Positions 12,790-37,203 of a DNA stretch of 45,657 nt are shown here, piece by piece. The first letter of the stretch is position 1; every line of letters starts with the position of its first letter. Source of the DNA: an uncultured Candidatus Saccharibacteria bacterium (GTDB lineage: Bacteria > Patescibacteriota > Andersenbacteria > UBA10190 > CAIZMI01); assembly GCA_964630025.1 (NCBI GenBank), contig CAZVRG010000004.1:1-45657 (forward strand), in the 5' to 3' direction. The notes below the pieces were generated by a model. It did not search any database. It had not been told where the DNA came from and saw only the letters and a list, made by a program, of their open reading frames with translations. Made by a program: the position numbers and the translations under genes.

Positions 12790-12842
12790 CACCATCTCAA
12801 ACGATCGTCATTGCGAGAGGAGAGCACGCATGACGGTTTTCC
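12786..12842 (+). terminator. CCATCTCAAA + GTCATTGCGAG-type hairpin after P1
   Basis: CGTCATTGCG-AGAGGAGAG-CACGCATGACG hairpin followed by GTTTT. The preceding CTAGCACCATCTCAAAC recurs inverted at 15404-15424. Confidence 0.5.
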
Positions 12843-12923
12843 ACAGACACCGGAAGTGATCTGCTATGCTATGAAGTATCCGACACAACACACAGCATAT
12901 GCCGATCTCTTTGGCAGTAACCT

Positions 12924-15443: not shown

Positions 15444-17039
15444 CTACAGAAGGCTCGACAGCAGACTCTGCGCGGTCATATGCGCGGGTTTTGGCAGTCC
15501 GAGAATGTCGAGCGCTGTGGGACCCACATCGGCAAGAATGCCAATCGGTGTGCTTAGAACCTGAAAGAGAATGTCATCGTCTTTTGGCGTGGTGTGTTGA
15601 GTATGTGCGGCAACGTAGAGCAGGACCACCGGATTCGCGGAATGATCGGTTGTTCCTTCTCCGGTTTGTAGATTCTTCATTTCCTCGGCATTGCCGTGAT
15701 CGCAGGTGAGCAGCACTGCACCACCAGCCGCAAGCGCAGCCTGGACGACGCGGGGAATTTGCGTGTCGAGAAACCGGAGTCCTTCCACTGTCGCGTCAAA
15801 TTTTCCCGTGTGGCTGATCATGTCGGGATTCGCGTAGTTCATCACGATGAAGTCATACTTTCCTTTGCCGGTTTCCTGTACCACATGATCGGTGATCGCC
15901 TCCGCGCTCATGCGCGGCGTTTCGCTGTAGTCTTTCACGTTGGGAGAGGGCACAAGAACGCGATCTTCGTTCGGGAAGGGCAGCTCGCGCCCGCTATTAA
16001 AGTAATACGTCACGTGCGCGTATTTCTCGGTTTCGGCGACACGGAGCTGTCGCAATCCATGCTCGGCAAGAACACGACCAACGGGCATATCCATCCATTG
16101 CTCGGGAAAGGCAACCGTGACCGGCAGTCCTTTTTCGTACTCGGCCATCGTGACAAATGCAAGGTCGGTGAATTGGACGGTGGGGAATGATGAAAACCCT
16201 TTCGTCACGAATGCGTGCGTGAGCTGCCGCGCGCGGTCCGGGCGGAAATTGAAGAACACGACCGCATCTCCGTCCCGCACGGGACGCACCGATCCGCCGT
16301 CGGTGATCACGCATGCGGGAGCAGTTTCATCCGTTGTTTTCCGCTCATACGCCGCCTGCAGAGCCTCTTGCCACGAGCGGTAGGGCGTTCCGGTGCCCGC
16401 AGTCAGAAGATCGTATGCCGCGCGGGTGCGGTCCCAATGCGTATTTCGATCCATGGCATAGAAACGCCCAATGAGCGTGGCGATACGTCCCGCGCCCGTT
16501 TGGCGCATGGTGTTTTCCATTTCCGTGAGATACTGTCCCGCGCTGACCGGCGGCGTGTCGCGACCATCAAGAAATGCATGGATGAGCGTTTGTTTGCCAA
16601 CGCCTTGCTCTGCCGCAAATGTAAGAAGCGCCTGCAGATGCTGCAGATGACTGTGGACCCCGCCAGGGGATGCGCACCCCATCAGGTGTAGAACGGACCC
16701 AGGGCGCTCCTTCACATGGGCAACCGCTTCCTGAAATGCCACGTTCTGAAAGAAGCTTCCGTCTTGAATCGCAAGCGTAATTTGCGGCAACGGCTGATAG
16801 ATCACGCGGCCGGAGCCGATATTTTTGTGTCCCACTTCCGAGTTGCCGACCTCTCCCCACGGAAGACCGACTTCAATGCCTGCAGCACGAATCGCAGCGC
16901 ACGGATAGGAACGAAGATAGTTCTGCAGATTCGTCATCTGTGCCGCGAGAACGGCGTTTCCATCCTCGATAAACGAAATCCCGAACCCATCGAGAATCAT
17001 CAGCACAAGCGGCCGTGGGCGTGGTGAAGGTGCCTCCAT
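15444..17039 (-). CDS. gpmI: 2,3-bisphosphoglycerate-independent phosphoglycerate mutase
   Basis: LMILDGFG, the catalytic Ser motif NSEVGHKNIGSGR, and CDHGNAE. The start was set to ATG 17039 because the longer ORF reads through the antisense strand of a tRNA gene. Confidence 0.9.
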   Translation of the reverse strand: MEAPSPRPRPLVLMILDGFGISFIEDGNAVLAAQMTNLQNYLRSYPCAAIRAAGIEVGLPWGEVGNSEVGHKNIGSGRVIYQPLPQITLAIQDGSFFQNVAFQEAVAHVKERPGSVLHLMGCASPGGVHSHLQHLQALLTFAAEQGVGKQTLIHAFLDGRDTPPVSAGQYLTEMENTMRQTGAGRIATLIGRFYAMDRNTHWDRTRAAYDLLTAGTGTPYRSWQEALQAAYERKTTDETAPACVITDGGSVRPVRDGDAVVFFNFRPDRARQLTHAFVTKGFSSFPTVQFTDLAFVTMAEYEKGLPVTVAFPEQWMDMPVGRVLAEHGLRQLRVAETEKYAHVTYYFNSGRELPFPNEDRVLVPSPNVKDYSETPRMSAEAITDHVVQETGKGKYDFIVMNYANPDMISHTGKFDATVEGLRFLDTQIPRVVQAALAAGGAVLLTCDHGNAEEMKNLQTGEGTTDHSANPVVLLYVAAHTQHTTPKDDDILFQVLSTPIGILADVGPTALDILGLPKPAHMTAQSLLSSLL

Positions 17040-17140
17040 TCCCTGTAGTATAGCGGCTCTCCGAGAAATACCTTGCTTTCGTCGAGGAAATACGCTATAG
17101 TTGCGCTGTTCAAGGCAGGGTCTTGAACGCGATATGTTGT

Positions 17141-17215
17141 CGCCGGGTGGAGAAGTGGTATCTCGCCAGGCCCATAACCTGGAGATCGCCGGTTCAAATC
17201 CGGCCCCGGCTACCA
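17141..17215 (+). tRNA. tRNA-Met (CAT), initiator type
   Basis: A manual cloverleaf fold gives acceptor CGCCGGG/CCCGGCT with a 1:72 mismatch, A11:U24, anticodon stem CCAGG/CCTGG, loop CCCATAA, T-arm GCCGG-TTCAAAT-CCGGC, and an encoded CCA. Confidence 0.85.
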
Positions 17216-17229
17216 GCATACCGAGAGAC

Positions 17230-17253
17230 CCGCAAAGCGCGGGCTTTTCGGTA
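17230..17253 (+). terminator. Short hairpin plus T-run after the initiator tRNA
   Basis: CCCGC-AAAGC-GCGGG followed by CTTTTCGG. Confidence 0.4.
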
Positions 17254-17357
17254 TTCCTGTTGGGCGGGATTTGAAAGATAGTTTCAAAAGCACATTGACC
17301 GGAAGATCGATTTGGTATAGAGTCCCGCAGGGAACTGTACCGTGAAAGGAGCATACT

Positions 17358-17654
17358 ATGTCGATGTCTCTTGATTTAGGAACGAAGCCGGCTGGACTAG
17401 AAGTTAAAACATACACGCATACGCTTGGATCGCTGGGCAAGTCCGTTCATCTTGGCGCGTATGAGATCTCGTTGGAAGACTTTCTCGTGGCTGCTGGATA
17501 CGTTCTTACCAATACGGACCTCGCCCCCAACGATCCCCGTCTCCAGTTTGTGAAGTATGTTCAGTCGATGCGGGTAGTCGAAGGCCACAATCGGGGCGGG
17601 GAACGGCTTGAACCCACGGTGCCGGTCCTTCTTCCGGAGCATATCGCCCGTTAA
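17358..17654 (+). CDS. Hypothetical small protein (98 aa)
   Basis: SD AAAGGAG lies 7 nt upstream of the ATG, and an intrinsic terminator follows directly. No motif was recognised. Confidence 0.6.
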   Translation: MSMSLDLGTKPAGLEVKTYTHTLGSLGKSVHLGAYEISLEDFLVAAGYVLTNTDLAPNDPRLQFVKYVQSMRVVEGHNRGGERLEPTVPVLLPEHIAR

Positions 17655-17673
17655 CGACGACGTGCATAGCTAG

Positions 17674-17712
17674 CCCCTTGCAGAATGCTTTCTGCGCGGG
17701 GTTTTTCTTTTT
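17674..17712 (+). terminator. Rho-independent terminator
   Basis: CCCCTTGCAGAA-TGCT-TTCTGCGCGGGG followed by TTTTTCTTTTT. Confidence 0.8.
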
Positions 17713-17823
17713 CAGGCAACGTGTTGAAGCAACAGGGGAAAATCGGTATTCTGTTGTTTTGTACCGGTGAATCCGCGTCGCTGCGCAGACAAAACAATAT
17801 GTATGCGCTACGCTTTGCTCCGC

Positions 17824-17898
17824 GCCGGTGTAGCTCAGTGGCAGAGCGATGGACTCATAAGCCATAGGTCGCAGGTTCGATCCCTGCCGCCGGCACCA
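17824..17898 (+). tRNA. tRNA with CAT anticodon, elongator type (Met, or Ile2 if lysidine-modified)
   Basis: Acceptor GCCGGTG/CGCCGGC, D-arm GCTC-AGTGGCA-GAGC, loop CTCATAA, T-arm GCAGG-TTCGATC-CCTGC, and an encoded CCA. Confidence 0.85.
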
Positions 17899-17958
17899 CT
17901 TCACAAACGTTTGTTCGCACCATATGCTGTGCAGGCGAACATTTTCATGTTGCGACTC

Positions 17959-18036
17959 GGCCCCGTGGTGTAGCCTGGTAAACATAGCACCTTGTCAAGG
18001 TGAAGATCGCCGGTTCAAATCCGGTCGGGGCCGCCA
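17959..18036 (+). tRNA. tRNA-Asp (GTC)
   Basis: Acceptor GGCCCCG/CGGGGCC, anticodon loop TTGTCAA, T-arm GCCGG-TTCAAAT-CCGGT, discriminator G, and an encoded CCA. Confidence 0.85.
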
Positions 18037-18433: not shown

Positions 18434-20047
18434 TTATTCGTGAACGCGGAAAATCATCGCGCGACTGATTTTCCCGTTCTGCTGCGGGAATGAAAAGGTC
18501 TGTGCCACACGAATATGGTCGAGAAAACGCGTGTCTGACAGCACAGGAAATACCTCACTCTCCGTGCCGCGGATAACGATGTATCGCGCGTCCCATTTTT
18601 GGAGCTCCTCCCACTGCTCGCTGCTGTCGGGCGTGTTGAGATGCGTCTCCGCAAAGACCGCGCGTCCCTCGTCTTTTTCGCCGAACAATGCGAGCACGAT
18701 GCTGGAGCGGTGCTCAAAGGCAATTGTTCCAGGGAGTGTTTTCGCTGCTTGGATTGCTTGGTAGTATGCGTAATCCGTTCCGAGATTTTTTTGATAGACT
18801 TCGCGAGCCTCTGCCGCGGTATGCCGCGTCCAGGACCCCGTCGCAAGAAGGATGAGCGCGAGTCCCAGTACTGCGGGGATTGTCTGTTTCAATACTGGCC
18901 ATCGGCTCAACATGCGACGAAACACTCTTCCGGATTCCTCAACACCAGCGGCGACAAGCAAAAAGAACAGCGGATAGAGGACAATGAGGAAGCGTTGTCG
19001 CACGCCCCACCACGCGATCGGCACCGCGAGCGTGAGGAAGAGCAGAACAAGCGGGAGAGAAACCGACACGCGTTTGCGCAGCAGAAAGATGATGCCTGCG
19101 AGCAGGAATAGACTGGGAAGTTCTTTCGGGTCTGTGACCAGCGAGCGCAGGCGCGCGGGCCATGTTGTGGCCGCGAGCGTCGCAACGTCATGCAGAACAC
19201 GGCGCGGTTCTTTCCATACGCGATCAAAACCCACGCTCTTCCAGAGTTCTCCGTAGTTGCGGAAAAACTCCTTGGCGCTCGTGACACCGAATGGCGTTGC
19301 TTCGGCGTCGGCAAAATATTCTACTGGCAAGAGCGGCCTCCCGACGGAGGTAAACAGGATCAGGAACGGCAGCCAACATGCGACCAACGCAAGGAGTGCC
19401 GGGAGCAGGAGGCGTCGGGGTTTCCAGAAGAACGCCGCGAGAAATGGGAAGAGCACGACGAGAAATGCACCCTCAAATCGTGTCAGTGATGTGAGCGCAA
19501 ACAGCGCTCCCGTGAGGACTGCTCCTCGGCGCGACCGCGTGTGAAGAAAGGCAAGGAGTGCGCCCAGCATCAGGGCAATAAACGTCGTGTCGGCATAGCC
19601 GCGTACGGATTGAAAGAGAAATGGCGCCACGGCCTGAAACGGCGCGAGGCCGATCACCAATGCAAACGATGAGATTCCCATCGTTCGCCCGAGCGCGTAT
19701 ACCAGGGCAACAGACACAAGGGAAGCGCCCAGAGCAATCACGAATGCTGCGTGTTCCCAGTCAACAAACGTATGCGCCAGGGCAATGAGCATCGGATACA
19801 TCGGTAACCGTTTCTCTGCAACCGGATAGGACCCTTTGAGGAGTTCTTGCGCAATGAGAATGAAGTTGTATGTATCGCCGCCGGGGAAGGCTTTCCACCA
19901 CTGGAGGAACGCGATGCGATGGACAACGGTAAGGACGAGAAGCGCGACGAGACCCCAGTGTGCACGGAAAAAATTGACAACTCGTGCGATCGGATCTGCG
20001 AAACGGGAGTGAAGAAAAGAATCGTTATGCACAGGAGAACGTATCAC
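18434..20047 (-). CDS. Polytopic membrane glycosyltransferase-like protein (ArnT/PMT_2, GT39/GT83-like)
   Basis: 537 aa with ~11 hydrophobic segments in the first ~400 aa and a soluble C-terminal domain. The N-terminal loop FPGGDTYNFILIAQ resembles this family. The call rests on architecture only. Confidence 0.55.
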   Translation of the reverse strand: MIRSPVHNDSFLHSRFADPIARVVNFFRAHWGLVALLVLTVVHRIAFLQWWKAFPGGDTYNFILIAQELLKGSYPVAEKRLPMYPMLIALAHTFVDWEHAAFVIALGASLVSVALVYALGRTMGISSFALVIGLAPFQAVAPFLFQSVRGYADTTFIALMLGALLAFLHTRSRRGAVLTGALFALTSLTRFEGAFLVVLFPFLAAFFWKPRRLLLPALLALVACWLPFLILFTSVGRPLLPVEYFADAEATPFGVTSAKEFFRNYGELWKSVGFDRVWKEPRRVLHDVATLAATTWPARLRSLVTDPKELPSLFLLAGIIFLLRKRVSVSLPLVLLFLTLAVPIAWWGVRQRFLIVLYPLFFLLVAAGVEESGRVFRRMLSRWPVLKQTIPAVLGLALILLATGSWTRHTAAEAREVYQKNLGTDYAYYQAIQAAKTLPGTIAFEHRSSIVLALFGEKDEGRAVFAETHLNTPDSSEQWEELQKWDARYIVIRGTESEVFPVLSDTRFLDHIRVAQTFSFPQQNGKISRAMIFRVHE

Positions 20048-20149: not shown

Positions 20150-21067
20150 ATGGAGAAAAGCATCCGTCCTCGGGTTGCGATTGTTCACGGTCGTGACCGT
20201 CGTGAGAATATCCGTCAGGCACAAGCACTGCTCGGCGATGCGTATATCGATCGTCTGAAGAGTGCTCGCCAGATCTTCATTCACCCGAACCTTGTCTCTG
20301 ACACGAATCAGCTCGCGAGTACGCATGTGGAGGCTGTCCGTGCCATTCTCGACGTGATTTCGCTGCATCGCGGTGACACGGTGCGCATCGGAGATGCGAG
20401 CTATCACAGCACGAAAAAAGCGTTTGAACGCTTCGACTACGCATCACTGCAACGGAGCGGCAATGCGCAGCTTCTTGATCTGAACGATGACGAAACACTT
20501 GAGACGTGTACCTACGATCGCGAGCTGCGTCGTCAACCGGTGCCGGCAAGCAAAACAGTTCTTTCATCCGACTGTATCCTTCTCGTCGTTCCGCCAAAGA
20601 TGCACAGTTATTACACCGTGACGTTGAGTCTCAAAACCCACGTGGTCGGCAGTATGGTCGTCCCGAAAAGTCCGTTCGGGATTCATGCGCGCTGGCCGCA
20701 CGTGCACAGCGGCTACTCCGCGGCGCATCGCACGCTCGCCGATTGGTACCAAGAGCATCCCGCACACGCCGCGTTCATTGACGGCCGTGAGGCGATGGAA
20801 GGGAATGGACCAACGTCCGGAACGAAGGTGGAACTCAATTGGGCGGTTGCGTCTCTCGATCCCGTTGCAGCGGATGCGGTTGCGGCGTGGCTGATGGGCT
20901 TTGCACCGGACGACATCGGCTATCTCGTGTTTCTTCGCGAGGCGGGATGGACTATTGATCCGGATGCGATGGAGATTGTTGGCGAGCCGCACTGGCGGGA
21001 ATTGCGCCAGGAGCTTGCACGTCCCGAGACGTGGCCGGAGATTGCAGAATGGAACACACACGCATGA
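20150..21067 (+). CDS. DUF362 domain protein
   Basis: IFIHPNLVS near the N-terminus and IDGREAMEGNGPTSG...ASLDPVAADAVAAWLMGF match the DUF362 pattern as recalled. Confidence 0.7.
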   Translation: MEKSIRPRVAIVHGRDRRENIRQAQALLGDAYIDRLKSARQIFIHPNLVSDTNQLASTHVEAVRAILDVISLHRGDTVRIGDASYHSTKKAFERFDYASLQRSGNAQLLDLNDDETLETCTYDRELRRQPVPASKTVLSSDCILLVVPPKMHSYYTVTLSLKTHVVGSMVVPKSPFGIHARWPHVHSGYSAAHRTLADWYQEHPAHAAFIDGREAMEGNGPTSGTKVELNWAVASLDPVAADAVAAWLMGFAPDDIGYLVFLREAGWTIDPDAMEIVGEPHWRELRQELARPETWPEIAEWNTHA

Positions 21068-22260
21068 CGCTTCGTCTCTGGGAACGTTTTCAATTGTTCG
21101 TCCTACCGATGGTTGTTATCGCGATCTTTGCGTTTGCTGGCTCTGCAGCCTGGCGGCTGCAGACCGCACCCCGTACTGCGCCGCAGGATCTCGTTTCCCT
21201 TGAGGGCTGCTTCACGCATACCGAGTTTACCGAACGCATTCGTTGTTATCGTCCCATGCTGGAACACCACCTTGATATGCACGGGCCGCGCGCCGTGCTC
21301 GCCGCACTGGATCGTCTGCAAGAGCAGCGCACGCAGTTTCGCGCCGAATGCCATACCATGGCCCATATCTTGGGCCGCTATTGGATCGCCAGTGGGAAAT
21401 TGCTTGCCGACGGGTTTCGTGAGGGAACGAATATCTGTCATTCAGGATTTTTCCACGGCATGGCGGAACGTGTGTTTCAAGGAGAGGACGCGTCTCTTGA
21501 TGAACCGGCGCATCTTTCTCCGGAAGAGCTTCGTGCGCGCATCGCGACCGTCTGCACAGATGAAGCATTGCGCACCCCGAGCCGCAACATGCGGTTTCAG
21601 TGTCTGCACGGGCTCGGGCACGCAGCCGTCTTTTCTCTGTCGTACGATCTCCTGCTCGCACTGGAGATGTGCGACGTGTTACCCACAGAGTGGGATCAAA
21701 GTTCCTGCGCGGGCGGGGCATTTATGGAAAACATCACGGGCATGGAGCGCGACCGGCGCATGCTGCGCGCGGGAGATCCGCACTATCCCTGCTCTATTGT
21801 TCCAAGCCGCCATCGCAAATCCTGCTACGGCATGCAAACAAGCTGGATGCTGGAATCAGGGATGAACTGGGATGCGATCATCGATGAATGCCGAACAGCG
21901 GGAGATGTTCGCCTCGCGTGTTCCCAAAGTTTCGGTCGTGACGTCAGTCCGCGCGTGCGCGAAAAAGGTCCCACGGAGTTCGTGTCTCTCTGCACACAAC
22001 TGCAGCCGGATGAGCGTTCTCCCTGTATTCGCGGAGCAGTATATGCGCTCGCCGATCACACGTGGGACGGCCGCTACGCCTTTCCGTTCTGTGCGGCGTT
22101 TCCAGATGGTGCTCTCGGTCACGCGTGCTTCACGGAGGCGCAGCGGCATCTGTTGTACTCTCTCGAACAGACACGCGCTGCGACGGAACAGGGCTGTGCC
22201 GCTCTTGGCACAGGACGCGAAGCATGCCTGCAGTCCCTGCAAACTCTTGCGTCCTCGTAA
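21064..22260 (+). CDS. Membrane-anchored Cys/His-rich repeat protein, function unknown
   Basis: One N-terminal TM, then about eight helix-like units each carrying a Cys followed by small or aromatic residues (ECHTMAHILGRY, ICHSGFFHGM, QCLHGLGHAAV, SCAGGAFMEN, SCYGMQTSW, ACSQSFGRD, PCIRGAVYAL, HACFTEAQRH). ATG 21064 overlaps the upstream TGA. Confidence 0.6.
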   Translation: MTLRLWERFQLFVLPMVVIAIFAFAGSAAWRLQTAPRTAPQDLVSLEGCFTHTEFTERIRCYRPMLEHHLDMHGPRAVLAALDRLQEQRTQFRAECHTMAHILGRYWIASGKLLADGFREGTNICHSGFFHGMAERVFQGEDASLDEPAHLSPEELRARIATVCTDEALRTPSRNMRFQCLHGLGHAAVFSLSYDLLLALEMCDVLPTEWDQSSCAGGAFMENITGMERDRRMLRAGDPHYPCSIVPSRHRKSCYGMQTSWMLESGMNWDAIIDECRTAGDVRLACSQSFGRDVSPRVREKGPTEFVSLCTQLQPDERSPCIRGAVYALADHTWDGRYAFPFCAAFPDGALGHACFTEAQRHLLYSLEQTRAATEQGCAALGTGREACLQSLQTLASS

Positions 22261-23974: not shown

Positions 23975-24370
23975 ATGACACTCCGCTCTTCGCTTGCCGT
24001 GTTTGGGGTTGGCACCACGTTTGCGTGGGCGGCATTTCTTCTTATTTTCTTTCTGGTGCCGCCGGAGACCGCGGGCACGCTCGGCGAAGTCTTTTTCTTT
24101 TCCGCGTTATTCTTGGCGTTTGTCGGCACGCTGACCATGCTTGGCGTTCTGGGACGCTGGCGGATGAGCCGGCTGCTTCCTGCACTGCACATCGGTCCGG
24201 CCTTCCGGCAAGGCATGTTTCTTTCCATTGCCGCGGTGGGCATGCTGCTGCTTCAGCGCTTCCGCGTGCTGCGCTGGTGGAATATTGCGCTGTTGGTCGT
24301 GATGCTGGTCGTGCTGGATTTTCTCCTTGCGCGTCGCGAGCCAAAAGGCGATGATGGTTCGTCCACCTGA
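23975..24370 (+). CDS. Small integral membrane protein (4 predicted TM), hypothetical
   Basis: 131 aa, strongly hydrophobic. A TACGCT -10-like box lies 14 nt upstream of the ATG. Confidence 0.6.
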   Translation: MTLRSSLAVFGVGTTFAWAAFLLIFFLVPPETAGTLGEVFFFSALFLAFVGTLTMLGVLGRWRMSRLLPALHIGPAFRQGMFLSIAAVGMLLLQRFRVLRWWNIALLVVMLVVLDFLLARREPKGDDGSST

Positions 24371-24376
24371 TACCCT

Positions 24377-25510
24377 ATGCCACGCATTCTTCAGATCGCA
24401 GACCCAGAAGAAGCCAAGGCAGTAGAGCAATTGGCGGTGCGCAGCGACTTCGAGGCACAACGCATTCGTCGTCTGTTAGACATGCCGGATCTTTCGCGAA
24501 CGCCGGGAAGCCCGCTCAGTGAAATCGTGAGTCGCGCCCTCGCAGTCAAAAGCGTAGAAGATTTTGATGTTATCAACATTCCTGAAATTGTTCCCACCCG
24601 CGTCCTTTTTGATCTTTTCAATATGCCGCCCGGTCATCCAGCTCGCAGCGCATCAGACACCTATTATATCAATGACGATTACGTGCTCCGCACTCATGAC
24701 ACGGTGTTCTGGTACTACTATTTGAACCACCCGATGATTAAAAAAAGGATAGAGAATAAGGAGACATTGGGCGCTGTCTGCTACGGAAAGGTGTACCGGA
24801 AAGATGAGATCGACAGAATGCACATGAATGTGTTCCATCAGTTCGGCGGATTGTACATCGCACCGGATGAGAAAAAAACCATCTCTCCAGACGACCTGAA
24901 GAATACCCTTTCTGAAATCGCACGCAGTATTTTTGGTGATGTACGCTTCCGTTTCTATGAGCATACCTTTCCGTATACCGATCCCAGCTACGAAATGGAG
25001 GCAGAAATCAACGGTCGATGGATAGAGATGCTCGGTTCCGGCATGGCCAGGAAAAGCGTGCTGGCGAATTTCGGCTTAACCGGCTATCACGGTTGGGCGT
25101 TCGGATTTGGTCTGGAACGTCTGGCAATCGCTTCCATGTCGCTTCCAGATATTCGGTTACTGTGGAGCGAGGACGAACGAGTCAAAAAGCAGCTGAAGCT
25201 TGGGAACGCATACCGGGAAGTGAGCAAGTTCCCTCCGGTCACCCGTGACATTTCGTTCATTGTCGGCAAGGATTTTGTGCCGAACGATTACTTCGACCTT
25301 ATTCGCGATATCGGCGGCGACCTCGTGGAAGAGGTGGCACTCCTCGACACATACGAGGACGCGGAAAAGTTCGGTGCGGACAAGGTGAGTTACACGTTCC
25401 GGGTCGTCTATCGGTCATTCGAGCGAACGCTCACCAATGAAGAAGTAGATGCCATTCACAAAAGACTCGAGGAGCAAACCGTGGCACGATTTTCCGCCGC
25501 GATTCGGTAA
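24377..25510 (+). CDS. pheS: Single-chain phenylalanyl-tRNA synthetase: PheS-type catalytic core fused to a C-terminal FDX-ACB anticodon-binding domain (mitochondrial-type architecture)
   Basis: Class II core GHPARSASDTYYI, GKVYRKDEIDRMHMNVFHQ, FPYTDPSYEMEA, GWAFGFGLERLA and PDIRLLWSEDERV. The C-terminus is KFPPVTRDISFIV...DYFDLIRDIGGDLVEEVALLDTY...YTFRVVYRSFERTLTNEEVDAIH. Confidence 0.9.
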   Translation: MPRILQIADPEEAKAVEQLAVRSDFEAQRIRRLLDMPDLSRTPGSPLSEIVSRALAVKSVEDFDVINIPEIVPTRVLFDLFNMPPGHPARSASDTYYINDDYVLRTHDTVFWYYYLNHPMIKKRIENKETLGAVCYGKVYRKDEIDRMHMNVFHQFGGLYIAPDEKKTISPDDLKNTLSEIARSIFGDVRFRFYEHTFPYTDPSYEMEAEINGRWIEMLGSGMARKSVLANFGLTGYHGWAFGFGLERLAIASMSLPDIRLLWSEDERVKKQLKLGNAYREVSKFPPVTRDISFIVGKDFVPNDYFDLIRDIGGDLVEEVALLDTYEDAEKFGADKVSYTFRVVYRSFERTLTNEEVDAIHKRLEEQTVARFSAAIR

Positions 25511-26253: not shown

Positions 26254-28508
<2,255 letters not shown>

Positions 28509-28585: not shown

Positions 28586-28720
28586 AACATGATTGAAAAA
28601 TGAGGCGAGCGATCCTGTCGGTACAGGAGCAGGTTGACGGCGTTTGTAGCTATCCGGTATACTCCCGGCTGTGGTGCCTCTCGGCCCCGCTTTTTAAATC
28701 ACGAACCTTTCTTTTCATTC

Positions 28721-28933
28721 ATGGTTTTGTCCGCACTGAAGGCCTTTCGCCTTCCGTCGCTGCTCGGCTTCACCCGTGAGGTCCGGCAGGAACTTAAAGG
28801 TGTGCAATGGCCGAGTCGCGAGACGACGGTGCGTTTTACCGTGCTCGTCATCGGCGTATCGGCAGTTGTCGGCATTGCAACGAGCCTTCTTGATGCTCTC
28901 CTCACGCTTGGGGTTGAACAGATTCTTCCGTAG
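28721..28933 (+). CDS. secE: Preprotein translocase subunit SecE
   Basis: 70 aa with FTREVRQELKGVQWPSRETTVRFTVLVIGVSAVVG, a single TM. It sits upstream of nusG as is usual. Confidence 0.8.
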   Translation: MVLSALKAFRLPSLLGFTREVRQELKGVQWPSRETTVRFTVLVIGVSAVVGIATSLLDALLTLGVEQILP

Positions 28934-29002
28934 CTTCTAGCTTGTAGCTTGTAGGCGGTCATAACGCACGTTCCTATAAACTAGAAGCTATAACCTAGAA
29001 CC
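28931..29002. repeat. Heptamer-arm hairpin H4 (fills the secE-nusG gap)
   Basis: Left arm TAGCTTC TAGCTTG TAGCTTG TAGG, core CGGTCATAACGCACGTT, right arm CCTATAA ACTAGAA GCTATAA CCTAGAA. It starts on the secE stop codon and ends 8 nt before the nusG ATG. Confidence 0.8.
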
Positions 29003-29009
29003 TCACCAA

Positions 29010-29555
29010 ATGGCCAAACAGATTCCCGCCACCGACAAAGCCTGGTATGTGTTGCACACGTATTCCGGGTACGAAGATAACGTTGCCCGCAACCTCCGGC
29101 AGCGTATTGAGTCCATGGGCATGGAAGACAAAATCTTCCAGGTGCTTGTGCCGCGGGAGAAAAAAATCAAGATTAAGGACGGCAAGCGGCGCGTGGTGGA
29201 AGAGCGACTCTTTCCAGGATATGTGCTGGTGGAGATGGTCGTCACGGACGATTCCTGGTATGTCGTCCGCAACACGCCAAACGTAACCGGATTTATCGGT
29301 TCGGGAACGATTCCCACACCGGTGTCGGAAGACGAAGTAAAGCGCCTCTTCGTGCGCATCGGCGAGGAAGAGCCGACGTACAAGATCGATATGAAGTCCG
29401 GGGACACAGTGAAGATTACCGATGGTCCGTTCAAAGACTTCGACGGCAGAATCGCGGAAGTAAACGAGGCAAAAGGCAAGATCAAAGTGCTGGTGAACAT
29501 GTTTGGTCGGGAGACGCCGATTGAGCTCGATTCTCTCCAGGCGAAAAAAGTCTAG
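29010..29555 (+). CDS. nusG: Transcription termination/antitermination factor NusG
   Basis: NGN domain WYVLHTYSGYEDNV and KOW motif GDTVKITDGPFKDFDGRIAEV. Confidence 0.95.
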   Translation: MAKQIPATDKAWYVLHTYSGYEDNVARNLRQRIESMGMEDKIFQVLVPREKKIKIKDGKRRVVEERLFPGYVLVEMVVTDDSWYVVRNTPNVTGFIGSGTIPTPVSEDEVKRLFVRIGEEEPTYKIDMKSGDTVKITDGPFKDFDGRIAEVNEAKGKIKVLVNMFGRETPIELDSLQAKKV

Positions 29556-29558
29556 GCT

Positions 29559-29735
29559 GCGACCGCAAAAACAAGCGCACTGTTGATGCACTGACAGGCC
29601 GGCAGAGCCGGACCTTTTCGTGCATCAACCCTTCAGACTCGCGCTTCGCTCCATTCCTCGCTCAACGGATCACCAATCCGTCTCGCTCGGTACTCGCTCC
29701 AGCGCTTCGCATTGCATCTTGTTTTTGCGGTCTCG
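29559..29735 (+). repeat. ~175-nt structured repeat, copy E2 (a partial extra copy extends to ~29810)
   Basis: Outer stem GCGACCGCAAAAACAAG/CTTGTTTTTGCGGTCTCGC. Stem 2 is GTTGATGCAC/GTGCATCAAC, capped by CCGGCAGAGCCGG. Stem 3 is ACGGAT/ATCCGT. It has the same conserved blocks as E1 and starts 4 nt after the nusG stop. Confidence 0.85.
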
Positions 29736-29877
29736 CGCGTGCTCCATTCGCTTTTAGCCCTCAGCTCTCCATCTACCTCATCACGATTCTGCAGTCTCGC
29801 GCGTGCGTTGTTTACTTTCAGTTATCAGCTTGGACTAGGATTTTGGCTTATGTAAGCAATTTTACTCCTATCGGCTA

Positions 29878-29906
29878 TTGACAAGTATCTCGAGAAGTGC
29901 TATGGT
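29878..29906 (+). promoter_or_regulatory. Canonical sigma70-type promoter
   Basis: TTGACA, a 17-nt spacer, then TATGGT. It lies ~50 nt upstream of ATG 29959, which has SD GAAGGAG. Confidence 0.65.
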
Positions 29907-29958
29907 GATCCCTTCTTTTTAAAGAAGACTGTTCCTTTTCACTACGAAGGAGTTTGTT

Positions 29959-30423
29959 ATGCGGACATTCAGTGTGGTTGTATGGGTGCTGACGTTCTGG
30001 TTCGTGAGCGTAAGCATATTCGTGTGGTTGAATGTTCAGAGGATACACCGAGAAGATGCGATGAAAATGGCGGAGCTGCGTCGCCTGGTGTATGAGAAGG
30101 ATCAGTTTTGGCAAGAGACGGACAAGCTGCTGAAAAATGCCGCAGCGTCTTCCCCGGCGGTGAGGCCGACAGTTTCAGCTCCCCCCCGTCCCATCGTCTC
30201 GGCCCATCGGTCTACACCGACGGCGCAAAAGACCTTTGCGCCAACGAGTACATACGTGCCTGTGTACGCTCCGGCTCCGGCGCCGATGGCGTTCCCGTGG
30301 CCAGGAGTTTCCGGCAGCCACGTCCGCTTCTCCGTCATTGTCATCGGCCCGAACGGATCGCGGTGGCGGGAAGGGCGGAAACTGGATCTAGTCCGACTGA
30401 TCCTTTCAACCCCTCTTCAGTAG
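29959..30423 (+). CDS. Hypothetical membrane-anchored, Pro/Ala-rich protein
   Basis: It has its own promoter, SD and terminator. An N-terminal TM (VVVWVLTFWFVSVSIFVWL) is followed by low-complexity AP-rich sequence. It interrupts the nusG-rplK adjacency. Confidence 0.6.
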   Translation: MRTFSVVVWVLTFWFVSVSIFVWLNVQRIHREDAMKMAELRRLVYEKDQFWQETDKLLKNAAASSPAVRPTVSAPPRPIVSAHRSTPTAQKTFAPTSTYVPVYAPAPAPMAFPWPGVSGSHVRFSVIVIGPNGSRWREGRKLDLVRLILSTPLQ

Positions 30424-30433
30424 TTCATTCCGA

Positions 30434-30471
30434 CCCCCGTAGAAACTTCGGTTTCTCGGGGGTTTTCTTTT
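30434..30471 (+). terminator. Rho-independent terminator with CCCCGTAGAAAC-type arms
   Basis: CCCCCGTAGAAAC-TTCG-GTTTCTCGGGGG followed by TTTTCTTTT. Confidence 0.9.
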
Positions 30472-30557
30472 GACCTTTTGCTTTTGTGAATATGCCGAGT
30501 GAACATGATCGTTGGTATCTCCCGTGGCGCACCGAAAACATGCACGGGCGTGAAATC

Positions 30558-30578
30558 GCTATCATGAATGATAGCACT
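30558..30578. promoter_or_regulatory. 21-nt palindromic site GCTATCATGAATGATAGCACT (copy a)
   Basis: 8-bp half-sites GCTATCAT/ATGATAGC. It is 20/21 identical to 35617-35637. Confidence 0.6.
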
Positions 30579-30648
30579 GCGAATGTTCGGTATGTTCAGC
30601 GGGATCACTTTCATACTGTGTTCTCTTTGGTGTATCACGTGCATGCTG

Positions 30649-30677
30649 TTGACGCTCCGCGCTTCGCGCTGTACGCT
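30649..30677 (+). promoter_or_regulatory. Putative promoter of rplK-rplA
   Basis: TTGACG, a 17-nt spacer, then TACGCT. The ATG lies 11 nt after the -10 box, implying a near-leaderless mRNA. Confidence 0.55.
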
Positions 30678-30688
30678 ACACGCTCGTT

Positions 30689-31111
30689 ATGGCAAAGGAA
30701 GTTCTTACGCAGGTAAAGCTGCAGATTCCCGGCGGGAAAGCGACGCCGGCGCCTCCCATTGGGCCGGCGCTGGGTCAGCATGGCGTGAACATACAAGACT
30801 TCTGCTCGAAGTTCAACGAGCAAACACGCGACAAGCAGGGCGAAGTGACGCCTGTAGTGCTGACAATTTATAAGGATCGCTCGTTCACCTTCATTTTCAA
30901 AACCCCGCCCGCAGCGGAGCTCTTGAAGAAAGCTGCGGGGGTTGAGAAAGGGTCCGGCACGCCAAACACCGCGAAAATCGGCACCGTCACGAAAGCACAG
31001 GTGCGCGAGATTGCGGAAAAGAAAATGGTGGACTTAAATGCCTCCGGTGTTGATGAGGCGATGCGGATTATCGAAGGCACCGCGCGGTCTATGGGGATTT
31101 CAGTTAAATAA
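30689..31111 (+). CDS. rplK: 50S ribosomal protein L11
   Basis: [26 protein letters not shown] and the full-length L11 pattern. Confidence 0.95.
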
Positions 31112-31112
31112 T

Positions 31113-31221
31113 CAAGCTCCAATAACCAAGCTCCAAACAATGTTCAAGCTCCAAGCTCCAAAACACTCCCGTTTTTTCATTGAGTATTGGAATTGTTTGG
31201 AATTTGGAATTTGAGATTTGG
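31113..31221. repeat. Heptamer-arm hairpin H5 (fills the rplK-rplA gap)
   Basis: The left arm is rich in AAGCTCC/CAAGCTC units and the right arm in GGAATTT/GAATTTG units. Pairing needs G.U pairs and a few mismatches. Confidence 0.75.
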
Positions 31222-31235
31222 TATTTTTTACGACT

Positions 31236-31913
31236 ATGCCTTCCAAACGCTACCAAGCCGCCAAAAAAGAACGTCCTACGGAAGCAAAATCCCTCCCGGA
31301 GGCCGTGAGCTTCGTGCATGCGCACGCAAAGGCGAAATTCGATGAAACGATCGAGCTGCACGCGCATCTCGGCGTCGACCCGAAAAAGAGCGACCAGTCC
31401 GTGCGTGGCACGCTTGTGTTTCCACACGGTGCCCCATCCAGCGTCCGTATCGCCGTCTTTACCGACGATCGTGAACTGCAGAAGTTGGCAAAAGAAGCTG
31501 GGGCGGATGTTGTCGGGGGCGAAGAACTGATTGCGAAGGTCAAGACCGAAGAAAAGCTCGACGCAGACGTTGCTGTGGCAACACCGGATTCCATGAAAGG
31601 TCTCGCAGCGGTTGCCAAGGTGCTTGGTCCCAAAGGGCTTATGCCGAATCCGAAAACGGGCACGATCGGTCCGGATCCTGCGAAGATTGTGAAAGAATTA
31701 AAGGGCGGGAAAACCGCATTTAAGATGGACGATTCCGGAAACGTACACCTTGCCGTCGGGAAAGCATCATGGGATGTCGAGAAACTCACGGCGAATACGA
31801 AGGCGGCGATTGATGCGCTCCGGCAATCCAAGCCGGCCGCTGCAAAAGGGGAGTTCCTGAAGTCCATGACGCTCACGTCCACCATGGGTGCGGGCGTACG
31901 GGTAAGAGTCTAA
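31236..31913 (+). CDS. rplA: 50S ribosomal protein L1
   Basis: KFDETIELHAHLGVDPKKSDQSVRGT and GPKGLMPNPKTGT. The start was set to ATG 31236. Confidence 0.95.
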   Translation: MPSKRYQAAKKERPTEAKSLPEAVSFVHAHAKAKFDETIELHAHLGVDPKKSDQSVRGTLVFPHGAPSSVRIAVFTDDRELQKLAKEAGADVVGGEELIAKVKTEEKLDADVAVATPDSMKGLAAVAKVLGPKGLMPNPKTGTIGPDPAKIVKELKGGKTAFKMDDSGNVHLAVGKASWDVEKLTANTKAAIDALRQSKPAAAKGEFLKSMTLTSTMGAGVRVRV

Positions 31914-31926
31914 AAAGTCAGCATAC

Positions 31927-31958
31927 AGAAAAAGAGCGGCTCCATGATATGGTGCCGC
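31927..31958 (-). terminator. Hairpin terminator oriented for the minus strand (may also serve rplA)
   Basis: On the minus strand, GCGGC-A-CCAT-ATC-ATGG-A-GCCGC is followed by TCTTTTTCTG. Confidence 0.6.
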
Positions 31959-32006
31959 CCTTAGTAATTGCGTACTTCCCAAATGATCGTGTTTCGACAA
32001 AGGACG

Positions 32007-32084
32007 TCATGAACGGAGCTTGTTGCCGAATGTTCCCTTCCTGTACAGCGCAAGCATCACCTGTTTATTCGGGACCTCGGACAT
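32007..32084 (-). CDS. Candidate 25-aa small ORF (MSEVPNKQVMLALYRKGTFGNKLRS)
   Basis: Not in the ORF track because it is too short. A strong SD GAGGAGGA lies 6 nt upstream of the ATG, and a terminator lies ~50 nt downstream. It sits in a lower-GC 320-nt gap. Confidence 0.35.
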   Translation of the reverse strand: MSEVPNKQVMLALYRKGTFGNKLRS

Positions 32085-32202
32085 TTCTTTCCTCCTCAAA
32101 AGTAGACAAATGAACAGACGAACAATACCCATGCGATAGTACGAGCCGAAATGCTTTGTGTCTAGAGCTTGGCTCACATCGCATAATCACTTGATCACCC
32201 GC

Positions 32203-32231
32203 TTGTCCTCAATAAGCACTCGCCGTACGCT
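32203..32231 (+). promoter_or_regulatory. Putative promoter of gatB
   Basis: TTGTCC, a 17-nt spacer, then TACGCT. The ATG lies 6 nt after the -10 box, implying a leaderless mRNA. Confidence 0.5.
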
Positions 32232-32237
32232 ACATCT

Positions 32238-33725
32238 ATGGAACTTGAAACCATCATCGGCCTGGAGATTCACGTCCATTTGAATACGAAATCGAAGCTG
32301 TTTTGCAGCTGCCGTAACGTGTCGGCGGCTGATCGACCGAATCAATACGTCTGTCCGGTCTGCATGGGATTCCCAGGGACGCTGCCCGTGACGAATGCGC
32401 AAGCGATTGAATGGACGGCGCTCGCCGGTCTGGCGCTTGGCTGTACCATTGCGAAGCACGCGACCTTTGCGCGGAAGAGCTATTTCTATCCCGATCTGCC
32501 GAAGGGATACCAAATCTCACAGTACGATGAGCCGCTCTGCATACACGGAGAAGCGCATGTGTTTGTGGGTGACACCGATCGCCACGTGCGTATTGAGCGC
32601 GTGCATCTGGAAGAAGATGCGGCAAAGAACGTACATACCAAGGATGCAACGCGTATTGATCACAACCGCGCAGGGACGCCGTTGATCGAAATCGTCACTG
32701 CGCCCGATCTGCGTAGTCCGCAGGAAGCAAAAATGTTTCTGGAAGAGCTGCAGCGCACCATGTGGTATCTCCGCATTTCAAACGCCGACATGGAAAACGG
32801 CGATCTTCGCGTGGACGCAAATATCTCCTTGCGCGAGCAGGGAGGAAAACTTTCGCCGAAGACGGAAATCAAAAACCTTAACTCTTTCCGCGCGGTCGAG
32901 CGTGCGCTCGCGTATGAAATTGAGCGCCAGCAAAAACTGTGGGAGGCAGGAACGCCGCCGACGACATCCAGCACGCGAGGATGGAATGATGAAAAAGGGC
33001 AGACGGTGGAGCAGCGCGTGAAAGAAGCGGAAGCGGATTACCGATACTTTCCCGAGCCGGATATTCCACCCCTTGTGTTGGAGCCTTCGTGGGTCGAGAA
33101 GCTTCGCATCGCACTTCCAGAACTTCCGCATGCGAAGGAAGAACGTTTCCGTCGCCAATATCAGATGGCGCCGGCGGACGCACGTTTGATCACGACGGAT
33201 CGTTCACTTGCCGACTTCGCAGAAAATGTCTTTTCCGAGATTGGGGAATGGGTTGCGGAACGGCCAGATGTCGAGCAGCGCGAAATTCCCCTCCTGGAGA
33301 AGCTCGCCACGAATTATCTGCTCGGAGATTTTCGACGGCTTCTTTCAGACGCAAAGGCAACTGTGGCCGATACAAAAGTCACACCCGAGAATTTCGCGGA
33401 ACTTGTCGTGATGCTGCATCGCGCTGAAGTAAATCGAAACGCCGTGCCGGATGTTCTGCGTCTCATGCACGGGACAGGCGGCGATCCTTCCACCATCGTG
33501 CAAGAGCGCGGCTTGCAGCAGGTATCGGATGCGGATGAACTGCGTCGTCTCGTGCAGAACGTCGCATTGAGTTTTCCGGCAGAAGTAGACAAGGTCCGCG
33601 GCGGGAAAGAACAAACACTGGAATTTCTTGTGGGACAAGTGATGGCGCAAACAAAGGGTCGCGCGAATCCCAAGACCGTGCGCGAGCTCTTCCGCGAAGA
33701 GTTAGGACTGTCAACGAGCGGGTAA
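32238..33725 (+). CDS. gatB: Asp/Glu-tRNA amidotransferase subunit B
   Basis: IGLEIHVHLNTKSKLFC, NQYVCPVCMGFPGTLP and RKSYFYPDLPKGYQISQ, plus a C-terminal GatB/YqeY domain. Confidence 0.95.
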   Translation: MELETIIGLEIHVHLNTKSKLFCSCRNVSAADRPNQYVCPVCMGFPGTLPVTNAQAIEWTALAGLALGCTIAKHATFARKSYFYPDLPKGYQISQYDEPLCIHGEAHVFVGDTDRHVRIERVHLEEDAAKNVHTKDATRIDHNRAGTPLIEIVTAPDLRSPQEAKMFLEELQRTMWYLRISNADMENGDLRVDANISLREQGGKLSPKTEIKNLNSFRAVERALAYEIERQQKLWEAGTPPTTSSTRGWNDEKGQTVEQRVKEAEADYRYFPEPDIPPLVLEPSWVEKLRIALPELPHAKEERFRRQYQMAPADARLITTDRSLADFAENVFSEIGEWVAERPDVEQREIPLLEKLATNYLLGDFRRLLSDAKATVADTKVTPENFAELVVMLHRAEVNRNAVPDVLRLMHGTGGDPSTIVQERGLQQVSDADELRRLVQNVALSFPAEVDKVRGGKEQTLEFLVGQVMAQTKGRANPKTVRELFREELGLSTSG

Positions 33726-35763: not shown

Positions 35764-37203
35764 TCAGCCGAGCGTCAGCGATTTTTGCGCGACGCGTTCG
35801 CGGAGGAATGCGAGCGCGTCCGCGAGTGATTTCACTCCAAGATTCTTCCCACCGTGGGCGCGCAGCGTCACAGTGTTGCCCTGCTGTTCCTTTTCTCCCA
35901 CAACAATCATCACGGGGATCTTCTGGACTTCCGCCGACCGAATTTTCTTCGGGAGCGTTTCGTTTGATTCGTCGAGTTCCGCGCGCAGACCGCCATCGCG
36001 CAATGCATCCGCAACACGTGTTGCATACGCGACCGCCGACTGACTCACGGGAAGCACACGCACCTGTATGGGAGCAAGCCACAGCGGGAATAGTCCGTTG
36101 AAGTGCTCAATCAGAAACGCGATGAATCGCTCGTGGGTTCCGATAACACCCCGATGCACGATCACCGGCCGCTCAGCTTTTCCTTCCTCGTTCGTCACTT
36201 CGATCCCGAAGCGCTCTGGAAGAAGCATGTCGAGCTGGATCGTCGAGACGGTGAACGTGTGTCCTGCAACATCTTTCATCTGGATGTCGGCTTTTGGGCC
36301 GTAGAATGCTGCGTCACCAACCGCTTCCGTGAACTTCACGCCGGCATGCTGAAGCGCAGAACGCAGTGCCGCTTCGCTTTGTTCCCAGAGCGCAATATTG
36401 TCCGCATACTTTTTCTTGTTCTTTGGGTCGTGTAATGCCAAGTCCACCCAATAGTCAGTCAGTCCGAGTGTTTGATAGACGCGCCGAATGAGCTCGAGGG
36501 TTTTTACGATTTCCGCTTCGATCTGATCCTCGCGGCAGAAAATGTGTGCATCGTTCAGGGTCATGCCGCGCACGCGGGTGAGACCCATGAGCTGGCCTGA
36601 CTTTTCGAAGCGGTACATGGTGCCGAATTCCGCGATGCGCATGGGCAAATCGCGATACGAGCGCGGCCGCGACTGGAAAATGCGGATGTGATGTGGACAG
36701 TTCATCGGCTTCAGGACAAACTCCTCCCCCTCAACCTTCATCAGCGGAAACATCGTGTCTTTGTAGTAGGGAAGATGGCCGGAGGTTTCATACAGCTCCG
36801 CCTTCCCAAGGTGCGGCGTGATGACATGCAGATATCCTGCGCGCAATTCTTCTTCGATAATGAATCGCTCCAGTTCGCGACGGATCGTTGCACCCTTCGG
36901 AAGCCACAGCGGTAGTCCGCTGCCGACCATCGGGTCAATGATGAACAGATCCAATTCCGCTCCGAGGCGTCTGTGATCTCTTGGAGACAACGTCTCCCCC
37001 TCATCTTTTTGAGGCTGGCGACGGCCTGCCCCACGACTTGTCCCGCGTAGCTCAAAGAGCGAAGTGGGAAGCCCAGAGGGCGAAGTGGGGCCTGCCCCGC
37101 GAAGCCCAGAGGGCGAAGTGGGGTGATCGCGCGGCGAGAGTTCAGCGGGTTCCGGAACAGCCGGTGTCTTCTTTTCGCCCAAAGGACGCTTGGTGGGTGG
37201 CAT
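35764..37203 (-). CDS. thrS: Threonyl-tRNA synthetase: catalytic and anticodon-binding domains only (no TGS or editing domain)
   Basis: Homology begins at DHRRLGAELDLFII. Class II motifs are present (HVITPHL..., FRFEKSGQLMGLTRVRGMTLNDAHIF, GDAAFYGPK), along with a C-terminal HGPT-type anticodon-binding domain. TGTAAAGT lies 6 nt upstream of ATG 37203. An alternative start is TTG 36990. Confidence 0.9.
   Translation of the reverse strand: MPPTKRPLGEKKTPAVPEPAELSPRDHPTSPSGLRGAGPTSPSGLPTSLFELRGTSRGAGRRQPQKDEGETLSPRDHRRLGAELDLFIIDPMVGSGLPLWLPKGATIRRELERFIIEEELRAGYLHVITPHLGKAELYETSGHLPYYKDTMFPLMKVEGEEFVLKPMNCPHHIRIFQSRPRSYRDLPMRIAEFGTMYRFEKSGQLMGLTRVRGMTLNDAHIFCREDQIEAEIVKTLELIRRVYQTLGLTDYWVDLALHDPKNKKKYADNIALWEQSEAALRSALQHAGVKFTEAVGDAAFYGPKADIQMKDVAGHTFTVSTIQLDMLLPERFGIEVTNEEGKAERPVIVHRGVIGTHERFIAFLIEHFNGLFPLWLAPIQVRVLPVSQSAVAYATRVADALRDGGLRAELDESNETLPKKIRSAEVQKIPVMIVVGEKEQQGNTVTLRAHGGKNLGVKSLADALAFLRERVAQKSLTLG
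37013..37125. repeat. In-frame tandem repeat in the 5' end of thrS
   Basis: On the coding strand, CCCCACTTCGCCCTCTGGGCTTC occurs twice 33 nt apart, followed by a partial third copy. It encodes PTSPSGLRGAG PTSPSGL PTSLFELRG. Confidence 0.8.

Follow-up and report, generated by a model that had tools for sequence, protein, structure and literature searches.

The window analyzed here, the whole 45,657-nucleotide contig CAZVRG010000004.1 (assembly GCA_964630025.1) of an uncultured Parcubacterium, carries a gene whose 377-amino-acid (aa) product joins a core of the kind found in the alpha subunit (PheS) of phenylalanyl-tRNA synthetase (PheRS) to an anticodon-binding domain of the kind found in the beta subunit (PheT). 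This protein is likely to be the sole PheRS of the organism, a single-chain, editing-free enzyme encoded in the ancestral pheS-pheT slot beside gyrB. In bacteria, PheRS is the textbook obligate (alpha-beta)2 synthetase. The single-chain form is treated in the literature as peculiar to mitochondria, 'a monomeric chimera' (PMC8136816, PMC7373986), and our literature search found no paper linking the candidate phyla radiation (CPR), Patescibacteria or Parcubacteria to a monomeric PheRS, and none reporting the single-chain form as the PheRS of a bacterial lineage.

Domain architecture and fold

The gene and the segments of its product are as follows.

24377..25510, + strand: predicted single-chain PheRS gene (PheS core plus FDX-ACB), an ATG-to-stop open reading frame (ORF) of 377 aa
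24554..25192, + strand: class II catalytic core, aa 60-272 (Pfam, group-wise alignment)
aa 105-109, inside the class II core: RTHDT segment
24785-24850, + strand: motif 2, aa 137-158, GKVYRKDEIDRMHMNVFHQFGG
24845..24847, + strand: Gly157 codon, at the Glu/Asp position of the canonical PheS and mitochondrial-type representatives compared
aa 198-204, inside the class II core: FPYTDPS segment
24974..24976, + strand: Tyr200 codon in FPYTDPS, at the second pocket Phe position (E. coli F250, M. tuberculosis F257)
25091-25126, + strand: motif 3, aa 239-250, GWAFGFGLERLA
25223..25507, + strand: ferredoxin-fold anticodon-binding (FDX-ACB) domain, aa 283-377 (Pfam), carrying D324, Y326, S338 and the C-terminal R377

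A preliminary description of this gene, made from the sequence alone, had proposed that a PheS-type core is fused directly to an FDX-ACB domain, and both domains are indeed found by Pfam in the 377-aa ORF: residues 60-272 match PF01409 (tRNA-synt_2d, the core of PheS) with E 1.5e-49, and residues 283-377 match PF03147 (FDX-ACB) with E 7e-24 and 84.5 bits, where the cut-off is 31.1, so that the C-terminus is matched by the FDX-ACB model. Every peptide quoted in that description is present in the ORF, and the segments of human FARS2 that it gave are accurate, being reproduced in a HMMER alignment to Protein Data Bank (PDB) entries 8p8x/3cmq (E 3e-57), where gdvyrrdqidsqhypifhq, gwafglglerla...pdirlfwcederf and a third segment ending in rityrhmertlsqrev face the window peptides. 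Human mitochondrial PheRS takes the first six places in a search of all PDB sequences (E 3e-57); chains of bacterial PheS align to the core only (E ~1e-29 to 1e-31), those of bacterial PheT to the last ~95 residues only.

An AlphaFold2 model of the protein, built from a 66-sequence alignment, reached a mean predicted local distance difference test (pLDDT) value of 95.6 and a predicted template-modeling (pTM) score of 0.91. It matches the closed, tRNA-free form of human mitochondrial PheRS (3cmq/8p8x) over its full length, with a TM score of 0.79-0.80 and a root-mean-square deviation (rmsd) of 3.3 Å over ~387 columns; with the PDB entries beginning 5mg included, TMq was 0.78-0.80 and rmsd 3.3-3.8 Å. 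Against the open, tRNA-bound form the TM score was 0.59, and bacterial PheS (the alpha subunit) matched the core only, at a TMq of ~0.54.

Mitochondrial PheRS (human FARS2, yeast MSF1; TIGR00469) is likewise a single-chain PheS-type core with a C-terminal, B8-like FDX-ACB domain and no editing domain, and in addition to this full-length match to its closed apo form, at 31-32% identity, it has in common with the window protein the residues that read G34 of the anticodon and the same clade in the tree. There are also clear differences: the window gene is bacterial, chromosomal and set in a housekeeping neighborhood, and its product is shorter, lacks both the insertion after motif 2 and a presequence, and carries family-wide replacements (Glu/Asp to Gly157, Thr to Asp108, Phe to Tyr200, and AHQ to VFW at 110-112). 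We therefore file it as a protein that works like mitochondrial PheRS and belongs to the same deep clade, as a distinct subfamily.

The canonical (alpha-beta)2 PheS/PheT enzyme has a homologous core and a homologous anticodon domain (PheT B8), holds an equal gyrB-side position in Patescibacteria, and presumably catalyzes the same reaction. The window enzyme, in contrast, is one polypeptide instead of two, and is devoid of B1, B3/B4 (editing), B5, B6/7 and the N-terminal coiled coil of PheS; its core is ~35% identical to canonical PheS and falls outside the canonical clade. With no beta subunit, and therefore no B3/B4 editing site, the protein is predicted to act as a monomer in which the PheS-type class II core would activate phenylalanine with ATP and the fused C-terminal FDX-ACB domain would read G34 of the tRNA-Phe anticodon, perhaps with the closed-to-open domain swing upon tRNA binding of human mitochondrial PheRS.

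Catalytic and anticodon-reading residues

Alignment mapping to E. coli PheS gives the equivalences R141=R195, G157=E210, Y200=F250, T201=T251, A241=A294 and R248=R301. Kept and near-invariant are the motif-2 arginine R141, the motif-3 arginine R248, H149, F153-H154-Q155, F198-P199, T201, S204, E206 and the specificity alanine A241. In the M. tuberculosis enzyme the L-Phe pocket is formed by F255, F257, T258, A305, Q215, E217, G309, R312, Q158, R201 and S177 (PMC12447630). Eight of these positions (F255, T258, A305, Q215, G309, R312, R201 and S177) have retained or conservative equivalents in the window protein; the pocket is not complete, as E217 is replaced by G157 and F257 by Y200.

Both replacements are features of the family as a whole. 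Glycine stands at position 157 in 40 of 40 family members, and the FHQxGG/GA sequence in 120 of the 120 top matches, whereas Glu or Asp is found there in 85 of 89 mitochondrial-type representatives (E53/D32). FPYTDPS likewise occurs in all 120 top family matches, with Phe at position 200 in 75 of 85 mitochondrial-type representatives. Other changes, each present in 40/40, are Thr to Asp108, Ala-His-Gln to Val-Phe-Trp (110-112), Asp to Lys138 and Tyr-Pro to Met-Asn (150-151). Over 85 family loci, residues 108/157/200 are D/G/Y in 80, T/D/Y in two, and include D157 together with F200 in two; P0121, a sister variant 58% identical to the window protein, is also T/D/Y.

Since two residues of the Phe pocket (157 and 200) have changed, the amino-acid substrate has to be inferred, and we read the family as having a remodeled Phe site inside a working PheRS that would still use phenylalanine. 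It is tempting to hypothesize that a carboxylate has been relocated, the loss in E157G being made good by T108D. Residues 108 and 157 do vary together, being T/D in P0121, L080 and L081 and D/G in the crown group; a counter-case is P0139, a partial or chimeric sequence, with T/G.

The anticodon-reading residues, by comparison with the human enzyme, are kept. Human mitochondrial PheRS reads G34 of tRNA-Phe via Asp364 (D364G is inactive), Phe366 (stacking), Ser375 and Arg414 (PMC7540514), and the equivalents in the window protein are D324, Y326, S338 and R377. These positions are invariant in 40/40 sequences across the family, except that R377 is present in 39/40, with one gap. No tRNA-Phe gene was found near the PheRS gene in 53 loci.

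Position in the pheS-pheT slot beside gyrB

The genes of the window that define its position are the following.

26334..28508, + strand: gyrB (ORF translation; Pfam GyrB domains in homologs)
28634..33725, + strand: downstream synteny block (Pfam), marking positional equivalence
28634-28933, + strand: secE (Pfam)
30689-31111, + strand: rplK (Pfam)
31218-31913, + strand: rplA (Pfam)
32238-33725, + strand: gatB (Pfam)

Whether a pheT accompanies this gene was addressed by comparative synteny, in which each fetched locus reached at most 10 kb either side of the gene. The preliminary description had seen no adjacent pheT, and a tblastn search with E. coli PheT bears this out, with no B3_4/B5 region in the 45.6-kb window; when the E. 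coli PheT and PheS queries were run by tblastn over the window and 85 family loci (1.32 Mb), neither a B3_4/B5/PheT-core region nor a second PheS came up. Metagenome contigs were also searched for PheT at the DNA level, using a degenerate nucleotide version of the B5 motif E-D-x-x-E-E-x-[AG]-R-x-x-G-Y. All 120 loci returned encode PheT, most with an adjoining canonical PheS, and none of them carries a gene of the single-chain family. In eight of the 120 the neighboring genes, GyrB included, are 62-86% identical to genes of family loci. The use of rplT as an anchor for pheST gave nothing, as it was absent from every fetched locus.

Comparison of the two sets of loci reveals a common slot, with the order X-gyrB-secE-nusG-rplK, in which X is either canonical pheS-pheT (Kaiserbacteria, ABY1-type lineages) or the single-chain gene. 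Wherever a family locus contains gyrB (58/58), the single-chain gene is no more than 5 kb away from it, and pheT directly adjoins gyrB in L111, L104, L180, L145, L173 and L216. The order pheT - gyrB - (secE) - nusG - rplK ... gatB of L111, L104, L180 and L145 thus has its counterpart in the order single-chain gene - gyrB - ... - rplK ... gatB of L054, L009 and the window, and the secE/rplK/rplA/gatB order of the window recurs both in family loci and in the pheST loci L104, L111 and L180.

Individual pairs make the same point. L056 reads gyrB / single-chain gene / 409-aa glycosyltransferase / 237 aa / tRNA-Thr, and L119 reads gyrB (77% identical to that of L056) / pheT-pheS / 411 aa (63%) / 233 aa (60%) / tRNA-Thr. 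In L173 the slot holds pheS-pheT, gyrB is 79% identical, and another four genes in synteny are 66-73% identical; a Candidatus Kaiserbacteria protein matches the PheT of this locus at 100% identity. The annotated 376-kb Kaiserbacteria contig L216 reads pheS (242 aa) - pheT (B3_4, B5, FDX-ACB) - gyrB ... class II aminoacyl-tRNA synthetase - dnaE, parallel to single-chain gene - gyrB ... thrS - dnaE in the window. No locus among the 85 family and eight pheST loci contains both types, even where flanking genes are ~80% identical. In a GyrB tree of 58 loci, the six pheST loci are interleaved among the 52 family loci in at least three places. Named lineages with canonical PheT are Kaiser-, Kuenen-, Komeili-, Falkow- and Magasanikbacteria, and the named lineages of the two PheRS types are near-complementary, Kaiserbacteria being the sole label in both lists.

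In position, then, the single-chain gene replaces pheS-pheT. From this pattern we conclude that it would be a functional replacement as well, and the genome of the window organism very probably lacks pheT.

The Kaiserbacteria, in which the single-chain gene also occurs, have in addition a minimized alpha-beta PheRS: the canonical PheS at L216:9269-9997 is 242 aa, a bare tRNA-synt_2d core without the N-terminal coiled coil, and its PheT partner, 593-615 aa, lacks the B1/B2 region. Many CPR PheT are without a B2 domain (PMC5370408). At L119:9245-11202, on a contig like those of Kaiserbacteria, a shift from frame 2 to frame 1 near 10300 splits pheT, either through a sequencing error or because the gene is decaying.

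Size, distribution and constraint of the family

The window protein has thousands of relatives. Each of the 120 top clusters is 72-79% identical to it, 362-390 aa long, and has both domains; their named sources are Parcubacteria-type Patescibacteria/CPR such as Giovannoni-, Yanofsky- and Doudnabacteria, Paceibacterota and Minisyncoccia. In databases these proteins are named 'hypothetical protein' (NCBI) or 'PheRS alpha chain' (JGI). Scanning the GTDB species, each represented by one genome, gave 80 loci from similar organisms and added Nomura-, Zambryski-, Wolfe-, Lipton-, Colwell-, Jorgensen-, Sung- and Kaiserbacteria. Among 1.84 billion cluster representatives, only 208 clusters reached E <= 1e-30, and those of them outside the family are mostly mitochondrial-type proteins with a few other bacterial single-chain proteins.

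The single-chain PheRS is under unusually strong constraint: in the same loci, median identity to the window copy is 70.6% for PheRS, 61.2% for L11, 57.6% for GyrB, 42.6% for GatB and 34.2% for MiaA. One metagenome-assembled genome (MAG), JACQLT01, has two single-chain copies on separate contigs (L031, L054) that are 83% identical at the DNA level. Duplication was considered and set aside, as each allele has its own gyrB after it; a bin of mixed strains is most likely.

Several side observations concern these loci. A standalone tRNA_bind protein of 132-148 aa is encoded directly upstream of PheRS in 13 of the 80 GTDB loci, several of them from Doudnabacteria (L041:9570-9989, L016:9543-9974, L049:5611-6027, L068:9535-9981, and L021, L033, L029, L014, L039, L042, L030, L060 and L051), and is absent from the window. 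Its best matches are to the B2 domain of PheT (pheT_bact positions 41-152, 94-116 bits), with YtpR just under cut-off, and it may be a trans-acting tRNA-binding helper of the beta-less enzyme. At L009:11164-14571, GyrB is 1135 aa long and has a ~415-aa insertion in the Toprim region with intein hallmarks (start ...GG|CFSGD, end ...VHN|S).

Single-chain genes also occur in huge phages. P0137/P0279 (L091:8001-9047) is a 348-aa protein with core and FDX-ACB, ~38% identical to the window protein, from which it differs in passing the pheS_mito cut-off (308 bits) and in keeping the acidic residue. Its source (ENA ERZ19027398 scaffold_19, 340,874 bp) is phage-like, with PhageMetallopep, SNF2, PcfJ and many tiny ORFs. 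A second homolog, which extends into FDX-ACB, lies at 613863-614750 of the 634-kb uncultured huge phage LR745206.1; in a curated phage collection most matches were to host-type pheS only, and the single-chain type was present in this one 634-kb record.

Is the protein a PheRS?

Several points weigh against reading the gene as the organism's only PheRS. First, the contig covers only 45.7 kb, and a pheST pair might lie elsewhere in the genome. Second, with Gly in place of the FHQxE/D acidic residue and Tyr in place of the second pocket Phe, the protein differs from every characterized PheRS. Third, it scores under the curated cut-offs of TIGR00469, TIGR00468 and NF051887. The preliminary description had suggested a TIGR00469-type model (pheS_mito), with an ambiguous outcome: the match is strong, at 224.5 bits, but falls under the cut-off of 258.35, which P0121 exceeds at 264.3 bits; scores with TIGR00468 (pheS) and NF051887 (SrmL) were 153.5 against 237.45 and 224.2 against 300. 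Fourth, the relatives P0124 and P0128 in non-CPR bacteria occupy accessory contexts and the sister family at NCBI is a 'mystery ligase', so architecture alone is no proof of PheRS function. PheRS activity of the window protein is, finally, a prediction from sequence and model, and all of the trees described below are neighbor-joining only, for which reason the deep branching order is provisional.

These points lead to the main rival explanation, in which the protein is a PheS-related paralog of other function, a SrmL-like 'mystery ligase' coexisting with canonical pheS-pheT elsewhere in the genome. The architecture is common to the two families, as positions 19-344 of the 349 in the bacterial SrmL model align to residues 49-366 of the window protein, across core and C-terminal domain, and the SrmL and pheS_mito models score level. 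No publication on SrmL was found in our literature search; the NCBI model shows that curators are aware of bacterial PheS-related single-chain proteins, with no role assigned. Nearer to SrmL are P0124, P0128 and P0131 (219-253 bits), which, unlike the window family, are rare and in accessory contexts. All three keep Asp157, and P0124 and P0128 also keep Phe200. P0124 comes from an Oligoflexia MAG, and like P0128 it sits in an accessory neighborhood of a larger genome. P0128 (L088-L090:10001-11197), a non-CPR homolog 45% identical, has lost FDX-ACB, a low-complexity C-terminus standing in its place; it looks like a dispensable paralog because its neighbors are two-component, GH92 and MFS genes. 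The two Phe-site residues altered throughout the window family would fit a change of function.

Set against this rival, the window protein scores below the SrmL cut-off, its gene holds the pheS-pheT slot of close relatives and is never found alongside pheS-pheT, it is more conserved than GyrB and L11, and the G34-reading residues are invariant. Moreover, less derived variants (T108/D157/Y200 and D157/F200) exist among the Parcubacteria family loci themselves. We therefore consider a paralog of other function unlikely, and favor a working PheRS.

Phylogeny and origin

A catalytic-core tree included 71 canonical PheS, among them four from Parcubacteria-neighbor loci and 20 adjoining B2-less PheT. 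All single-chain proteins (the CPR family, other bacterial and mitochondrial-type) form one clade, in 100/100 bootstraps, apart from the 71 canonical PheS. The window protein thus lies outside ordinary bacterial PheS and with mitochondrial-type PheRS, in keeping with the affinity suggested in the preliminary description. Its core shares 46% identity with the remaining bacterial single-chain proteins, 41% with the mitochondrial type and 35% with Parcubacterial PheS. A further tree took the E. coli PheS core joined to PheT-B8 as its outgroup. In it the CPR proteins form a group (99% bootstrap) that clusters with the remaining bacterial single-chain proteins (63%), and the mitochondrial-type set branches beside them as a sister instead of enclosing them.

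Given this clade outside canonical PheS, and the low identity to PheS, the gene is a xenolog from the deep clade of mitochondrial PheRS that displaced the ancestral pheS-pheT operon in place, at its own position by gyrB, instead of a local fusion of pheS and pheT. Distances between family proteins track those of GyrB weakly (Spearman 0.16) and level off near 0.33, with nearest neighbors differing between the two proteins; these features and the patchy distribution indicate that the single-chain gene has been exchanged horizontally among Parcubacteria lineages.

Might the gene instead have come from a eukaryote, with a nuclear gene for mitochondrial PheRS moving into CPR bacteria as a functional PheRS? 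The closest characterized relatives are eukaryotic mitochondrial enzymes, and CPR cells are episymbionts with much foreign DNA. Such a capture is nevertheless highly improbable, as the CPR proteins cluster with other bacterial single-chain proteins beside the mitochondrial type and lack its insertion between residues 160 and 172, and as copies exist in huge phages; the direction of transfer is judged here on neighbor-joining trees with one outgroup type. A recent local origin, in which an internal deletion in the pheS-pheT pair already present fused pheS to the 3' (B8) end of pheT, would account for the position of the gene and for its order of PheS core then B8, but is hardly credible, as the core is closer to other bacterial single-chain and mitochondrial-type proteins than to neighboring Parcubacteria PheS, the core tree rejects an in-situ fusion by excluding all 71 canonical PheS from the single-chain clade, and the L056 gene lies on the opposite strand relative to pheS-pheT of L119.

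Taking the xenolog reading further, we offer a broader scenario as a tentative possibility, one that we would not call probable. Perhaps most Parcubacteria/Paceibacteria-type Patescibacteria translate with an editing-free single-chain PheRS of the ancient mitochondrial clade, whose gene spread horizontally, repeatedly ousting pheS-pheT at its own locus, and whose amino-acid site was rebuilt in the crown group (Glu to Gly, Phe to Tyr, Thr to Asp). The 'mitochondrial' form would then be a bacterial invention acquired by eukaryotes, with no post-endosymbiotic fusion, and the rebuilt site could possibly serve an editing-independent rejection of tyrosine.

Other features of the window

The PheRS gene is set among housekeeping genes (ligA, a gatA-type amidase, gatB, gyrB, secE, rplK, rplA, miaA, thrS, dnaE and thyX), together with a type IV pilus component. 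Immediately upstream is the following feature.

23975..24370, + strand: 131-aa hydrophobic ORF, no assigned function

The stop of this ORF is 6 nt ahead of the PheRS start codon, and the two are possibly co-transcribed. It is no conserved partner, the gene upstream of PheRS differing among genomes.

Further upstream, a cluster of tRNA-Met, tRNA-Met and tRNA-Asp lies at 17141-18036, and many related loci have the same trio ahead of their PheRS-gyrB block (e.g., L016, L033, L039, L041 and L019). An iPGM ORF on the opposite strand (15444-17354) is overlapped in its 3' part by the first tRNA-Met (17141-17215, + strand). Two big neighboring ORFs at 11317-15311 (490 and 795 aa) have CarboxypepD_reg as their sole recognizable domains, and large ORFs without any family match are found at 935-2002, 5246-6238, 18434-20047, 21031-22260 and 37291-38622.

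The thrS gene (35764-37203, - strand) encodes a threonyl-tRNA synthetase (ThrRS) of 479 aa (TIGR00418, 528 bits) that consists of the class II core and anticodon domain only. With neither a TGS nor an N2 editing domain, it is a second editing-less synthetase in the window; its Kaiserbacteria counterpart (L216:19477-20721, 414 aa) has the same two domains.

Implications

If correct, these findings would have consequences beyond this one genome. TIGR00468 and TIGR00472 are members of the GTDB bac120 marker set, and a single-chain PheRS would explain why these pheS and pheT marker models would fail in such genomes, affecting estimates of completeness. The family would also supply a concrete bacterial relative for the debated origin of mitochondrial PheRS. 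Furthermore, closely related genome pairs that differ only in PheRS type would be ideal for gauging the worth of the beta subunit and its editing site. In mitochondrial PheRS, a higher specificity of the active site offsets the missing editing (PMC8136816, PMC7373986), and fidelity without editing may likewise be expected of the window enzyme. A PheRS without editing, alongside a ThrRS without editing in the same window, would therefore bear on the tolerance of mistranslation in reduced genomes.

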